From contig JAXMAA010000002.1 of NCBI GenBank assembly GCA_046350615.1, positions 149,204-213,203 of the forward strand: DNA of 64,000 nt. The letters are read 5' to 3'. The first letter of the stretch is position 1, and every line of letters starts with the position of its first letter. The notes below the pieces were generated by a model, which did not search any database, had not been told where the DNA came from, and was given only the letters and a program-made list of their open reading frames with translations. Origin of the DNA: Candidatus Saccharimonadales bacterium. GTDB taxonomy: Bacteria > Patescibacteriota > Saccharimonadia > Saccharimonadales > UBA7683. The position numbers were made by a program, and so were the translations under genes. Positions 3,380 to 50,670 of the stretch are shown here, piece by piece.

Positions 3380-3414
3380 ATACTAAAAAGTGTCCAATTG
3401 GACGTTTTTTAGTA
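3380..3414. repeat. repeated palindromic motif, core GTCCAATTGGAC; candidate operator
   Basis: The 24-mer atactaaaaagtgtccaattggac (3380-3403) is identical to 13948-13971. Here it extends into a 34-nt near-perfect palindrome tactaaaaagtgtccaattggacgttttttagta. Confidence 0.6.
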
Positions 3415-9794: not shown

Positions 9795-11012
9795 ATGCCT
9801 TATAATTCACGTTCGTACGGCGGAAACCGTCGCAAACAATATGGCGGCAATCGAAACCGATTCAACAACCGTAACAACAAAACACGCAATATGGTAAAGG
9901 GGCGTGGTCAATATATCGATCCAGCCAAGTTTGTGCGCATGGCAACACCGGTAGAGATTGAGGAATATGTGCCAACTCACCTGTTTGCCGATTTTGCGGT
10001 TGACCAGCTTATAAAAGATAATCTGGTGCAAAAAGGCTATCAAGTGCCTTCACCAATTCAAGATCAAACCATTCCGATTGGCCTTGAAGGCAAAGATGTA
10101 ATTGGTATAGCCAACACCGGTACGGGTAAAACTGCTGCCTTTTCGCTCCCAGTTCTCGATCGCCTGATGCATGATCCGCACGCCAAGGCGCTCATTATTG
10201 CGCCAACACGCGAACTGGCGCAACAGATTGAAGATGAAATGCGCTCCATTGCCAAGGGTAGTGGGCTTTTCGGCGTACTACTCATTGGCGGTACTCCAAT
10301 GGGTCCACAGCTCCGTGATCTTAAAATGAAGCCACGAATTGTGATAGGTACGCCAGGTCGTATTAAGGATCACCTGGAACGGGGCAGTCTTATCTTAGAT
10401 CGCTTCAATCTTGTTGTACTCGATGAAGTAGATCGCATGCTTGATATGGGCTTTTTGCCAGATATGCAGTTTATTCTTGATAGTGTTGCACAAGATCGTC
10501 AATCATTCTTCTTTTCGGCAACGATGGACAGGACAGTTGATGGGCTTATTCAGAAGTTCTCCGACAACCCCATAACGGTTTCTGTAAAAACAGGTGATAC
10601 CAGTGATAATGTGCACCAAAATGTGGTTCATTACACCTCAAGAGAGGATAAAATTGAAAAACTGCACGATGCCTTAATTCAAGACCACGTTAAAAAGGTG
10701 ATTATTTTTGATGAGACTCAGCGAAGTGTAGAGCGTTTGAATACCGAACTTGCAAGCCGTGGTTTTGCAACAGATGCCATTCATGGCGGCAAAACGCAGG
10801 GTCAGCGGCAGCGGGCACTCAAAAAGTTTAAAGAAACCGACATAGATATATTAGTGGCTACCGATGTGGCTGCTCGTGGGATCGATGTAAAAGATATCAC
10901 TCACGTAATTAATTACGGCCTTCCGCAAACCTACGAAGATTACACACACCGAATCGGGCGCGCTGGCCGTGCTGGCAAAACTGGCTACGCACTCACGTTC
11001 ATCACAAAGTAA
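9795..11012 (+). CDS. DEAD-box ATP-dependent RNA helicase
   Basis: Q motif PSPIQ, GTGKTAAF, DEVDRM, SAT, HRIGRAGRAG. R/N/G-rich N-terminal tail. Confidence 0.92.
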   Translation: MPYNSRSYGGNRRKQYGGNRNRFNNRNNKTRNMVKGRGQYIDPAKFVRMATPVEIEEYVPTHLFADFAVDQLIKDNLVQKGYQVPSPIQDQTIPIGLEGKDVIGIANTGTGKTAAFSLPVLDRLMHDPHAKALIIAPTRELAQQIEDEMRSIAKGSGLFGVLLIGGTPMGPQLRDLKMKPRIVIGTPGRIKDHLERGSLILDRFNLVVLDEVDRMLDMGFLPDMQFILDSVAQDRQSFFFSATMDRTVDGLIQKFSDNPITVSVKTGDTSDNVHQNVVHYTSREDKIEKLHDALIQDHVKKVIIFDETQRSVERLNTELASRGFATDAIHGGKTQGQRQRALKKFKETDIDILVATDVAARGIDVKDITHVINYGLPQTYEDYTHRIGRAGRAGKTGYALTFITK

Positions 11013-11026
11013 TTCGCACTTTCTTA

Positions 11027-11055
11027 ATCTGTTTGAGGACTGTCCTCAAACAGAT
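11027..11055. repeat. REP-like hairpin, left copy
   Basis: atctgtttgaggac-t-gtcctcaaacagat: perfect 14-bp stem. The outer flank ttcttaa mirrors the right copy. Confidence 0.85.
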
Positions 11056-11069
11056 GGGCAAAATGTGAT

Positions 11070-11684
11070 TTATGAATTTACTAGATCTGATTTAATATCT
11101 TGAAGATCAGATCTTTTCTGTTGGTAAGATTTTAAAAATTCAAGGTAGTCTTGCTCAGACTTGAATAAATTGAGAATGGGCTCGGTCACAATCCATTCAG
11201 GAGTAGCGAGATCGCAGTAATACTTCAAACTCGAGTACTTATACCTGCGCCAGTAGCGGGGGTTCATGTGGATGTAGCGACTAATGTGATCAAGGTATGT
11301 TGCTGAGTCGATGTGACTTGCCTTGTATCTACTCTCAAACAAGGAGCCTGTGCGTTGATATTTATGGTTAAAGTATCTGCTATAGCTTGTCATGATCGCC
11401 CGCATAAAAGCAGACATAGCACCAGCCTCGTGTTGGTAGATGAGTATGTGAAAATGGTTTCCCATAAGACAGTATGCGAGTAGCTGGATGTCTCCGTGAT
11501 AATGCGGATACGTTTGCCCAACCTTATTTTTAGCTGGCTTCACCGAAAGATAGCGCTTAAATAAGCTGATAAAAAATAGCCGGTCAGAAACATCAAGAAA
11601 GATAGCTTGCCTGTTTCCTCCACGAGCGTAAATATGGTAGTAAGCTTCGGCGACGTCATGTTTAAGGATATTCCTGGACGGCAT
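11070..11684 (-). CDS. REP-associated tyrosine transposase (RAYT, IS200-like Y1 transposase family, COG1943)
   Basis: YHIYARGGNRQAIF, HUH motif MGNHFHILIY, GSLFESRYKA, catalytic-Tyr region YLDHISRYIHMNP. Confidence 0.85.
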   Translation of the reverse strand: MPSRNILKHDVAEAYYHIYARGGNRQAIFLDVSDRLFFISLFKRYLSVKPAKNKVGQTYPHYHGDIQLLAYCLMGNHFHILIYQHEAGAMSAFMRAIMTSYSRYFNHKYQRTGSLFESRYKASHIDSATYLDHISRYIHMNPRYWRRYKYSSLKYYCDLATPEWIVTEPILNLFKSEQDYLEFLKSYQQKRSDLQDIKSDLVNS

Positions 11685-11709
11685 AATTTTATAATATCAC
11701 AAAAACATT

Positions 11710-11738
11710 ATCTGTTTGAGGACAGTCCTCAAACAGAT
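11710..11738. repeat. REP-like hairpin, right copy (inverted)
   Basis: atctgtttgaggac-a-gtcctcaaacagat, followed by ttaagaa. Confidence 0.85.
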
Positions 11739-11787
11739 TAAGAAAATGTGATTTGACTTGATTATGGTTACGATTTAGCGTGGAGGG

Positions 11788-13086
11788 GTGATACGACGAA
11801 CAAAAAATACCATCAAAGCGCATGTTAAACGCAATCCGCATGTATTGCAACTGGCGACAAAAATTAAAAAACCCGCTCAAGCGCTTACGGCTGAAGATGT
11901 TGCCGAGGCACGTCATTATATCCAGCAGTTCTGGGTTAATTTAGAGCGATATCATCCGCACGATGAAGAGAGCTTAATTGGCTTGCCGAATGCCTATTTG
12001 GTGCCAGCACACGATCCTACGAGCACATTCAACTTTGACGAAATGTATTACTGGGATAGCTACTTTATGGTGCAGGGCATGCTAAAAAATCCAGATAAAA
12101 AAGAGCTGGTATTGGGTATTTTAGAAAATCTATTTACACTGTTTGGTCGTTTCAAAGTGATACCAAATGCCTCAAGAACCTATCTGATGGGCCGTTCGCA
12201 GCCACCACTTTTAACAAGCTTTATATTTGATGTGTACGAGGCGTACGGCCTTGATAAACGCTGGCTGGCACAGGCAATCGGCTATGCTAAACAAGAGTAT
12301 GAAACCGTCTGGATGGGCCAAGCCAAGCCATTTGATCATCAGGTATATCAAGGCCTTTCGCGCTACTACGATATTAATGTGTTGCACGATCTAGCCGAAG
12401 CTGAAAGCGGCTGGGACATGACAAATCGTTTCAATCGCCATTGTCTCGATTACCTGCCGGTTGATTTAAATGCGCTTCTTTATAAGTACGAGCGAGATTT
12501 TGCGAGAGCAGCCCATATCTTAGAGAATCTAGATGAGCAAGTATCTTGGGAGAAAATAGCCAAACAGCGCCACCAGAACATGCAAAATCTGATGTGGAGC
12601 AGTACAAAAGGCCTATATTACGATTTCAACTATAAAAAAGAACGCAAAGGGCAAGTCGCATCACTGGCAAGTTACGTGCCGTTGTGGGCAGAGCTAGTAG
12701 ATCAGAAAACAGCCAATCAGTTAGCAAAAAATCTGCGCCGTTTTGATGCCGATGGCGGCTTAGTTACCACCGATGGCCAGATGCTTAAAAGTGCTTTACC
12801 CCAAAAAATGCCACTGCAATGGGCCTATCCAAATGGTTGGGCACCTGTTCATTTTTTTGTAGTGCAAGGTTTGGAGAAATATGGATACCACGAAGAGGCA
12901 AAACGGATTGCACTCAAGTGGCTCAAAACATGCAATGATTGGTTTACTAAGCATGGTGTATTCTTGGAAAAATATAATATGATTCAGCCCACAAAGCATC
13001 CAGTAGAAGGCGTATATCCAAGCCAGACCGGTTTTGGCTGGACAAACGCAATTTTTGAACGCCTCTGCCAAGATTATCTTGATTAA
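11788..13086 (+). CDS. trehalase (GH37)
   Basis: YYWDSYF, RSQPPLL, ESGWDMTNRF, QTGFGWTNA. The GTG start is uncertain. Confidence 0.85.
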   Translation: MIRRTKNTIKAHVKRNPHVLQLATKIKKPAQALTAEDVAEARHYIQQFWVNLERYHPHDEESLIGLPNAYLVPAHDPTSTFNFDEMYYWDSYFMVQGMLKNPDKKELVLGILENLFTLFGRFKVIPNASRTYLMGRSQPPLLTSFIFDVYEAYGLDKRWLAQAIGYAKQEYETVWMGQAKPFDHQVYQGLSRYYDINVLHDLAEAESGWDMTNRFNRHCLDYLPVDLNALLYKYERDFARAAHILENLDEQVSWEKIAKQRHQNMQNLMWSSTKGLYYDFNYKKERKGQVASLASYVPLWAELVDQKTANQLAKNLRRFDADGGLVTTDGQMLKSALPQKMPLQWAYPNGWAPVHFFVVQGLEKYGYHEEAKRIALKWLKTCNDWFTKHGVFLEKYNMIQPTKHPVEGVYPSQTGFGWTNAIFERLCQDYLD

Positions 13087-13947: not shown

Positions 13948-13971
13948 ATACTAAAAAGTGTCCAATTGGAC
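13948..13971. repeat. second copy of the GTCCAATTGGAC motif
   Basis: 24/24 identical to 3380-3403. Lies 37 nt upstream of the metG-leader -10 box. Confidence 0.6.
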
Positions 13972-14004
13972 AAAAAATAGTATAACTTAAAAATATAACA
14001 GATG

Positions 14005-17896: not shown

Positions 17897-18305
17897 GGCG
17901 CTACAGATCATTATGGGCGCTCCACAGCCTATGGTTTCATCGGCACAGATGAGTTCACATAAACGTGAGGCTCGCAGGAAAGAGTTGATCAGACAAGAGG
18001 GTGCCATTGGCGCTACCTTGTTTGGCAAAATTCCTGAGGGACATCAGCGTGAATTCTTCTGTCTTGATGAATATACCTGGATCTGGCACGAGAGTTGGAT
18101 TGATGAGGCAACGAAAGCCACTAAGACTATGCACGTACGCTACGAATTTCAACCACGTGGCGTGCTGAAAATTGTTGACGGTACCGCAAGCGGCTTTGTA
18201 AATGGTGACGAGCTGAAATACCTTTTACAATCAATGACAACCTACTACAAGCGAGTAAGCAAAGAGGTTTACGGAGTCACCCCTGCCCCAATCCAACTAA
18301 CCTAA
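17868..18305 (+). CDS. hypothetical protein (start uncertain)
   Basis: ORF with a plausible globular C-terminal part (EFFCLDEYTWIWHESW). No family recognised. Confidence 0.45.
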   Translation: MRSIVVMLRKALQIIMGAPQPMVSSAQMSSHKREARRKELIRQEGAIGATLFGKIPEGHQREFFCLDEYTWIWHESWIDEATKATKTMHVRYEFQPRGVLKIVDGTASGFVNGDELKYLLQSMTTYYKRVSKEVYGVTPAPIQLT

Positions 18306-50088: not shown

Positions 50089-50120
50089 ATCATAAAACTC
50101 ACGATCGTGAGAAATTGGAT
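50089..50120. promoter_or_regulatory. candidate operator, copy 1 (ATCAT-N4-CTCACGATCGTGAG-N4-TGGAT)
   Basis: Perfect 14-bp palindrome at 50098-50111, between the regulator stop and the ABC operon. Confidence 0.55.
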
Positions 50121-50123
50121 ATT

Positions 50124-50585
50124 TTATATAAGGGCCTTGGCTTCAGATAATTGGACCTCTTTCTCTAACCCGAGGGCCTGTATCTCGGCTCTTAGATATT
50201 CTTGGTGGTCAAACTTAGTCACCCAGACGCTCTTTTGAATTTGTTCGAAAGAAAGCTCTTTTAGTAGAAGGCAGAGGTGGTCGCGTTTTTTACGATCCGC
50301 TTCAGGAATATCGAATATTATCATCAGCACGCTTCCTGGCAGAGTAGGCGCGGTGAAAGGCAGCATGGCGTGGCGGCCTTTTGCCGTCAGCTCTGGCGCG
50401 CCCACTTCATTGATGATAATAAGCCCTTGCCGAATAGCTCGACTAAAAGCATTATTTAATTGTCTTGCAGAGATCTCGTGATTACTGGCAACATAGTTAA
50501 CAAGTGCAGCGCGATAGAGCCGTTTGTTGTGATCTGGCAATAGATTTTCAAGTAAATACCTTGTCGTTGTGCCGTATCTTCCCAC
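50124..50585 (-). CDS. PaaX-like transcriptional regulator (wHTH plus Cas2-like central domain)
   Basis: The C-terminal VLMIIFDIPEADRKKRDHLCLLLKELSFEQIQKSVWVT matches the PaaX/Cas2-like signature (..fDIPe..rk.Rd.l...L...gf..lQ.SVW). GTG start. Confidence 0.65.
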   Translation of the reverse strand: MGRYGTTTRYLLENLLPDHNKRLYRAALVNYVASNHEISARQLNNAFSRAIRQGLIIINEVGAPELTAKGRHAMLPFTAPTLPGSVLMIIFDIPEADRKKRDHLCLLLKELSFEQIQKSVWVTKFDHQEYLRAEIQALGLEKEVQLSEAKALI

Positions 50586-50596
50586 ATAGAAATTAT

Positions 50597-50628
50597 ATCA
50601 TTTATCTCACGATCGTGAGTTCTATGAT
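50597..50628. promoter_or_regulatory. candidate operator, copy 2 (ATCAT-N4-CTCACGATCGTGAG-N4-ATGAT)
   Basis: Fully symmetric 32-bp site (core 50606-50619) abutting the regulator's own TGaTATAAT box (50592-50600 region). Lies in the divergent gap to trhO. Confidence 0.6.
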
Positions 50629-50670
50629 ACTTTCTTTTGTGAGGGATAAGTTTTTGGTATGATATAACAG

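Follow-up and report, generated by a model that had tools for sequence, protein, structure and literature searches.

A probable single-copy, REPtron-like cassette with a class-2 HUH/Y1 gene between two palindromic modules in a Candidatus Saccharimonadales genome

REPtrons are tnpAREP/RAYT genes together with the cognate repetitive extragenic palindromes (REPs) on their flanks (Nunvar 2010, PMC2817692; Ton-Hoang/Messing 2012, PMC3479197; Bertels 2017, PMC5581495; Quentin 2018, PMC6006769; Corneloup 2021, PMC8266576). For the proteobacterial REPtrons, 'no evidence of tnpAREP mobility' has been reported (PMC8266576). TIRtrons and their TIRYT proteins correspond to subclass 2.1 of TnpA_Y1 and to group 1 of Bertels (Di Nocera 2013, PMC3733652; Quentin 2018, PMC6006769). 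Proteins of class 2 (TnpAREP-like) are recognized by a Y...NP motif and two serines (SS) in the tail, whereas class-1 IS200 proteins have Y...Q (Quentin et al. 2018, PMC6006769). Here we describe a 740-bp cassette, composed of one HUH/Y1 gene and two palindromic modules, in a 64-kb window of a Candidatus Saccharimonadales genome. The window is the whole stretch of DNA analysed, and our counts of hairpins, hairpin cores, repeats and Y1 genes refer to it. We consider it probable that the cassette is a self-contained, single-copy, REPtron-like unit, in which a gene for a class-2 HUH/Y1 single-stranded DNA endonuclease lies between its two cognate 57-bp modules. It is apparently domesticated and not a multicopy IS200 element.

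Like REPtrons, the cassette has one HUH/Y1 gene, apparently in single copy, whose product carries the class-2 motif Y...NP and the SS motif in the tail and has 4ER8 as the best matching structure. Its own palindromes bracket the gene and co-vary with the protein lineage, and its distribution is housekeeping-like, i.e. rare on plasmids and phages and syntenic within clades. In contrast to REPtrons, there is no GT[AG]G at the foot of the hairpin; the conserved element is instead an ATCACA box at a distance of 8 nt. The 14-bp stem is perfectly palindromic and has symmetric ATCACA/TGTGAT boxes at 8 nt from either foot, dispersed hairpin copies were not detected in the window, and the protein (204 amino acids) stays under the NCBIfam cut-off for RAYT proteins. 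Moreover, the host belongs to the Patescibacteria, outside the groups covered by the published RAYT surveys cited above.

As judged from its sequence motifs, the protein is closest to subclass 2.1/TIRYT. It has NHFH, F-E and YIH[LM]NP, compared with NH[YF]H, FQ or W[EQ], and Y[IV]HLNP in TIRYT proteins, which is close but not identical. The flanking repeats of TIRYT genes often lie outside any genome-wide family, as may be the case here, and some published terminal inverted repeats are wholly self-complementary. The flanks of the cassette, however, lack GGGGWSAS and carry perfect hairpins with the core AGGAC-N-GTCCT instead. A C-terminal helix-turn-helix (HTH)-like domain (Bac_DnaA_C/HTH_23/HTH_28) was not detected with Pfam, and the 204 residues of the protein compare with a median of 238 for TIRYT. 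Furthermore, Quentin et al. 2018 (PMC6006769) saw no REP-like hairpins beside genes of subclass 2.1, whereas the genes of the present family have them as a rule.

IS200 (IS200/IS605, tnpA-only) is similar in size (~0.7 kb), in having one Y1 gene between subterminal hairpins and in its discrete ends; as in IS200, an upstream hairpin placed like a terminator could protect the gene against read-through. The cassette differs from it by the motifs N-H-F-H and Y-I-H-M-N-P in place of the class-1 motifs D-H-[VI]-H and Y...Q, by an apparently single copy, without near-identical copies in the window, by symmetric ends and by a long vertical residence. The literature already records REPtron-like genes from genomes that lack REP families, so the kind of element is known. 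New here are the design of the modules, the host phylum and the evidence of a flip in place. A literature search retrieved no paper describing this Y1 family in Saccharibacteria or Patescibacteria.

The cassette and its palindromic modules

The features of the locus, in coordinates of the window, are as follows.

9795–11012, plus strand: DEAD-box helicase gene, left neighbour (stop codon 11010–11012).
11013–11752, minus strand: whole cassette (module, gene, module), 740 bp; right edge from cassette-free relatives, left edge from the helicase stop codon.
11013–11069, no strand: left module, 57 nt, palindromic; TTCGCA (11013–11018), CTTTCTTA, hairpin with loop T, GGGCAAAA, inner TGTGAT (11064–11069).
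11027–11055, no strand: left perfect hairpin, ATCTGTTTGAGGAC-T-GTCCTCAAACAGAT.
11070–11684, minus strand: HUH/Y1 gene, 204 amino acids, TnpA_Y1 class 2, RAYT-like; H77-F-H79, Tyr137 in RYIHMNP, S151-S152 in the C-terminal tail.
11685–11701, minus strand: putative Y1 promoter; on the gene strand TGTGATATT (extended -10-like, includes the inner box), 8 nt, ATG.
11696–11752, no strand: right module, 57 nt, palindromic; inner ATCACA (11696–11701), AAAACATT, hairpin with loop A, TAAGAAAA, outer TGTGAT (11747–11752).
11710–11738, no strand: right perfect hairpin, ATCTGTTTGAGGAC-A-GTCCTCAAACAGAT, followed on the minus strand by AATGTTTTTG, terminator-like.
11753–11790, plus strand: host trehalase promoter and start, outside the cassette; TTGACT (11753–11758), 17 nt, TAGCGT (11776–11781), 6 nt, GTG (11788).
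11788–13086, plus strand: trehalase gene, right neighbour (context).

Sequence reading and a pattern search located two perfect palindromes of 29 nt (11027–11055 and 11710–11738) on either side of the Y1 gene. Their 14-nt arms have no mismatches, and the pattern search gave no matches in 100 shuffles. Folded as DNA, both copies form a 13-bp stem; the energies range from -12.5 to -16.4 kcal/mol, the z-scores from -5.7 to -6.8. Once extended, the hairpin arms reach 31 and 42 nt and are the top two inverted repeats of the window (repeat search). A preliminary description of this DNA had reported a 204-residue HUH/Y1 gene between two perfect hairpins with identical stems and a central T or A, and sequence reading, the pattern search and the match to Pfam Y1_Tnp bear this out. 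The protein motifs NHFHILIY and YLDHISRYIHMNP are present, as are the mirrored outer flanks ttcttaa/ttaagaa. The placement of the hairpins was likewise correct. The left one, assigned to a terminator-like position, starts 14 nt past the helicase stop codon, between convergent genes. The right one, assigned to the promoter region of the trehalase gene, ends 14 nt before the TTGACT -35-like element.

Each hairpin is the centre of a 57-nt module consisting of a box ATCACA, 8 nt, the hairpin, 8 nt and a box TGTGAT. Of the four ATCACA-N8-ATCTG half-sites, three match exactly; the far-left box is degenerate (TTCGCA). The hairpin feet read ...CTTA/ATCTG and ...CATT/ATCTG (the slash marks the foot). 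The left module fills the space between the stop codons of the helicase and Y1 genes and touches both. A repeat search also revealed a 45-nt direct repeat with 89% identity, which comprises the hairpin, N4 and AAAATGTGATTT. Since the modules are nearly symmetric, the two copies are both direct and inverted repeats of each other, and their orientation is poorly defined. The initial view of two inverted copies consequently needs qualification: it is backed only by the base in the loop (T or A) and by the outer spacers, whereas the 45-nt direct repeat and the near-palindromic modules fit a direct orientation as well.

The Y1 protein and its relatives

The protein matches Pfam Y1_Tnp with 46.5 bits (cut-off 23) and scores 41.1 bits against the NCBIfam equivalog NF047646 REP_Tyr_transpos, below its cut-off of 80 bits. 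A Pfam scan at E <= 0.01 gave nothing besides Y1_Tnp and no HTH-like domain. In an alignment of 23 homologues the residues N76-H77-x-H79 (the HUH motif), Y137 in RYIH[LM]NP and S151-S152 are invariant; the catalytic tyrosine presumed at the outset is thus kept. An AlphaFold (AF2) model with a pLDDT of 85.8 shows short helices and one long terminal helix (residues 177–203). A sequence search of the PDB with the family profile returned only ISDra2 TnpA (E 0.19), i.e. a remote relationship by sequence, and for this reason a fold comparison was used. The best fold match in the PDB (Foldseek) was 4ER8, E. coli TnpAREP on a REP hairpin, with an E-value of 4.8e-6 for 172 aligned columns. The TnpA structures of ISDra2, IS608 and IS200 rank after it. 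Motifs and model together support a place for the protein among the HUH/Y1 enzymes of the RAYT type (TnpAREP, class 2) and not with class-1 IS200 TnpA.

The protein has ~900 homologues, nearly all of which are 203–206 residues long and 53–69% identical. When clustered at 90%, almost all of them remain single, and the exact protein of the window is a one-member cluster from one contig. A profile scan with one genome per species yielded at least 574 relatives. We studied the best 80 loci of these, from 78 assemblies, which are mostly from Saccharibacteria and other Patescibacteria. For 59 of 79 loci, the 130 nt upstream of the gene and the 130 nt downstream of it have at least one exact match of 11 nt or more in common, compared with 2% of mismatched locus pairs. 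What they share is in nearly all cases a palindrome with AGG[AT]C-N-G[AT]CCT at the top and a lower stem that differs by lineage. Close orthologues (L001, L004, L164, L165-L169 and L170) have the full box-N8-hairpin-N8-box module on both sides. In close orthologues the inner TGTGAT is located exactly 11 nt before the ATG, a spacing kept in at least six lineages.

In an alignment of 21 modules, 79% of the cells pair, compared with 66% in shuffles and 33–44% in slid controls. Changes on both sides of the stem number 58 versus 24 expected, a value reached by 0 of 500 shuffles. For example, GAGGAC/GTCCTC in the window corresponds to GAAGAC/GTCTTC in L164, altered in both copies. The bracketing of the gene by cognate hairpins is a conserved trait of the protein family. 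Y1 relatives with matching palindromes were also seen in bins assigned to Gammaproteobacteria, Bathyarchaeia and Nanoarchaeia (L031, L033, L036, L038 and others, also of the L017 type), which may be due to mis-binning or to a genuinely wide distribution.

A third copy of the hairpin was not found in the window at up to 3 mismatches, the 11-nt core AGGWCNGWCCT occurs there only at the two flanking sites, and the window holds one Y1 gene. An exact scan for TGTTTGAGGACNGTCCTCAAACA in public genome and metagenome contig collections, in which the proteins of the window are not indexed, gave no match. Relatives of the protein are rare on mobile elements: 16 of 72,556 plasmids hold distant ones, and viral contigs gave one weak match to the family. 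The preliminary description had also proposed a second palindromic family, GTCATCC, in the same DNA. This family was not reproduced, with 4 matches to the heptamer where 5.3 are expected and no GGATGAC...GTCATCC palindrome in the window.

In a few distant members of the family the cognate hairpin is dispersed within open reading frames (ORFs), even inside the Y1 gene: at 10182, 10478, 17620 and 18676 in L023, at 4268, 6889, 8059 and 8613 in L044 and at 10167 in L061. The dispersed hairpins have conserved flanks, e.g. TTAGCYTC-AAAAGGTTAAACCTTTT in L044. This is genuine REP-like dispersal inside the protein family; dispersed hairpins, including those in ORFs, have already been described for subclass 2.4 (PMC6006769). 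The Y1 family can thus spread hairpins, and the clade of the window shows no sign of it.

These counts bear on a classical REP-RAYT system, in which the hairpin would belong to a genome-wide REP/REPIN family mobilized by a single RAYT and the window would hold the gene-flanking pair only. The layout of the locus is indeed like that of REPtrons (PMC8266576), and the dispersal in L023, L044 and L061 is a precedent. At an E. coli-like density (~1 per 8 kb), however, about 8 additional copies would be expected in 64 kb and none is present. The flanks of those Saccharibacteria orthologues in which the hairpin was recognized contain about one extra copy (in L009, 1 kb upstream). The absence of a GT[AG]G foot and the RAYT score under the NCBIfam cut-off also argue against this explanation, which we regard as unlikely. 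The REP-RAYT arrangement named in the preliminary description therefore stands in part: the class-2 motif, the fold match to 4ER8 and the REPtron layout agree with it, whereas the lack of dispersed copies in 64 kb, the missing GT[AG]G foot and the score of 41 versus 80 bits do not.

Residence and orientation at the helicase/trehalase site

The cassette is located between the same helicase and trehalase genes in four lineages, namely that of the window, L001, L164 and L165-L169. The Y1 proteins of the latter three are 69%, 64% and 57% identical to that of the window, respectively. In these three lineages the Y1 gene points the same way as the genes beside it; the window is the only case in which it is inverted. 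A trehalase-anchored scan of metagenome contigs yielded 80 further loci, none of them with the cassette. In other clades of Saccharibacteria the cassette is found at different sites and is syntenic within each clade. tRNA genes were looked for as insertion targets beside the orthologous cassettes, and none was found.

The closest cassette-free relatives (L084 and L085/L086) keep the element TTGACTT-N16-TAGCGT and have unrelated DNA upstream of this promoter. The right junction reads ...TGTGAT/TTGACTT in the window, L164 and L165. On the left, the cassette begins directly after the helicase stop codon (TAA/ATCACA). The cassette-free promoter of the relatives and the start at the helicase stop codon thus define the unit as 11013–11752, 740 bp.

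All pairs of compared genomes are saturated at fourfold-degenerate sites, while the boxes, the spacers and the hairpin are nearly identical. This combination indicates purifying selection on the boxes, spacers and hairpin. Together with the site shared by four lineages, the saturation also points to a long residence of the cassette between the helicase and trehalase genes. The trehalase promoter is kept in relatives with and without the cassette despite the saturated synonymous sites. We considered horizontal replacement of the cassette, because the Y1 identities of 57–69% are incongruent with those of the neighbouring genes. Since fourfold sites are saturated for every pair, the values cannot be read as horizontal transfer and may reflect a plateau; they were dropped as evidence. 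The cassette behaves as a long-resident, selected gene and not as an active insertion sequence.

An autonomous IS200-type insertion sequence would account for several of these observations. The 740-bp unit with its subterminal hairpins would transpose by single-strand 'peel and paste', the shared site would reflect target preference, and the different orientation would result from an independent insertion. It is a discrete unit with defined ends (ATCACA...TGTGAT) beside an intact host promoter that is bare in relatives. Its size and gene content are those of IS200, it is found in several unrelated genomic contexts, and both its presence and its orientation vary among relatives. The cassette is, however, single-copy in the window, and identical or near-identical copies were not detected anywhere. 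It has the Y...NP motif and not the class-1 Y...Q, and it has symmetric ends where IS200/IS605 has a left and a right end that are strand-specific. That one site is occupied in four lineages with saturated synonymous sites and modules under purifying selection means long residence, and the Y1 family is essentially absent from phages and plasmids. We judge an IS200-type element to be quite unlikely.

A REPtron that still moves as a whole is a possibility that we consider real, if doubtful. In this case the enzyme would cut at the symmetric boxes and invert, excise and re-insert the unit of module, gene and module. The inversion in situ, the precise edges against a bare promoter and the differing sites among clades would then be footprints of such movement. 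The window's left outer half resembles an inverted copy of the right outer half. An attempt to place the inversion breakpoints from the polarity of the spacers was given up, as the modules are too symmetric and no unambiguous model fits.

Two further arrangements at the site were noted. L118 has the helicase and trehalase genes adjacent to each other without a Y1 gene, with ATCTGTTAGAG...CTGTTAACAGA in between. It is a candidate empty site, although weak evidence. The 157-bp spacer holds ATCTGTTAGAGatcgaacCTGTTAACAGA (L118, 4327–4400), the foot of which matches the family hairpin, with 11 nt identical to the copy of L002. This element may be a decayed solo module left by a deletion between hairpins, or just a terminator. 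In L084 (2559–7514), the closest trehalase relative (77–80% amino acid identity), it is the trehalase gene that is inverted, between the helicase gene and the laccase-like gene, and the Y1 cassette is absent. The helicase/trehalase junction is a rearrangement hot spot.

A possible mechanism and its biological context

For the apparently domesticated, REPtron-like cassette that we favour, we propose the following mechanism by analogy to TnpAREP and to the TnpA of IS200/IS605. The enzyme would bind the hairpin when it is extruded in single-stranded DNA, e.g. at a replication fork, and would cut and rejoin the strand beside it, most likely at or near the ATCACA/TGTGAT boxes. As cleavage or guide sites, the boxes with their fixed distance of 8 nt are the strongest candidates. 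The flipped cassette could result from breakage and rejoining at both modules or from recombination of one module with the other.

The modules are probably expression signals as well. Binding of the enzyme at the inner box could autoregulate the Y1 gene, and the hairpins occupy positions in which one would expect terminators or insulators facing the helicase and trehalase genes; the right one is terminator-like on the minus strand. The extended -10-like element followed by 8 nt and the ATG suggests that the Y1 mRNA is leaderless. Both the trehalase and the Y1 gene look leaderless, with a -10-like hexamer 6–8 nt before the start and no Shine-Dalgarno sequence. An Rfam scan of 10800–12000 gave only a chance match to a snoRNA (E 0.88).

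Several points weigh against this proposal. The nuclease activity of the Y1 protein is a prediction only, and conservation and spacing are the grounds for placing the cleavage site at the boxes and for a leaderless promoter; a consensus scan gave no canonical sigma-70 promoter for the Y1 gene. The covariation of the palindromes fits a symmetric binding site in double-stranded DNA equally well, and the upstream (U) and downstream (D) modules within a locus do not provide independent observations. Excision and subsequent re-insertion could in principle have produced the inversion, as could ordinary recombination independent of the enzyme, and the exact breakpoints are blurred by the symmetry of the modules. 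Finally, the counts cover the 64-kb window of the source genome, and a small family of dispersed hairpins may exist elsewhere in it.

A further explanation is in line with the covariation, which cannot separate a hairpin from a symmetric duplex site. The palindromes could be expression signals only, i.e. a bidirectional terminator behind the helicase and Y1 genes and a double-stranded operator in front of the Y1 and trehalase genes, the duplex being bound by a dimeric regulator (the Y1 protein or another) without cleavage. Their positions would fit, with a stop codon 14 nt away, convergent genes around one palindrome and two promoters close to the other, which lies upstream of both; one hairpin is terminator-like on the minus strand. 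The gene of a PaaX-like regulator in the window is likewise flanked by two copies of a palindrome. We nevertheless consider this explanation very unlikely. The same palindrome is kept on both sides in about 75% of the family loci, whatever the neighbouring genes, and moves with the gene to different contexts. Other helicase orthologues have unrelated, T-rich terminators. The catalytic HUH and tyrosine residues are invariant, and the nearest solved structure is that of a nuclease on a single-stranded hairpin.

The PaaX-like gene (50124–50585, minus strand) encodes 153 amino acids that match Pfam PaaX_M and, weakly, Cas2. The palindromes beside it (ATCAT...CTCACGATCGTGAG..., at 50089–50125 and 50597–50633) are probably operators. 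This case illustrates that a gene bracketed by palindromes need not be mobile.

Two more repeats were observed in the window. The palindrome ATACTAAAAAGTGTCCAATTGGAC... is present at 3380–3414 and 13948–13983 with 24 identical nt; each copy is bordered by an A-run and a T-run, as in a bidirectional terminator. The two copies are 10.6 kb apart with the Y1 cassette in between; one of them is found just after a laccase-like gene, upstream of metG. The segment 20581–20633 contains three tandem 14-nt units (CAACTACAAACTAC), with a diverged copy at 18228.

RAYT/REPtron systems have been characterized almost wholly in proteobacteria, and their origin from IS200-like elements is an open question. The cassette adds a compact, delimited REPtron-like unit from the reduced genomes of Saccharibacteria and other Patescibacteria, in which the hairpin shows no sign of proliferation and which is flipped in place in one lineage. 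If the enzyme were inactive, the cassette would be one more member of a large, recognized superfamily. If the enzyme is active on its own modules, they would provide a simple natural substrate on which the choice of cleavage site by class-2 Y1 nucleases can be studied, and a way to ask what the role of such an enzyme is in a cell without a REP family. Should the mobility of the whole unit prove true, the widespread Patescibacteria family would represent an intermediate, still alive today, from IS200 to the proteobacterial REPtrons, which are immobile and domesticated.

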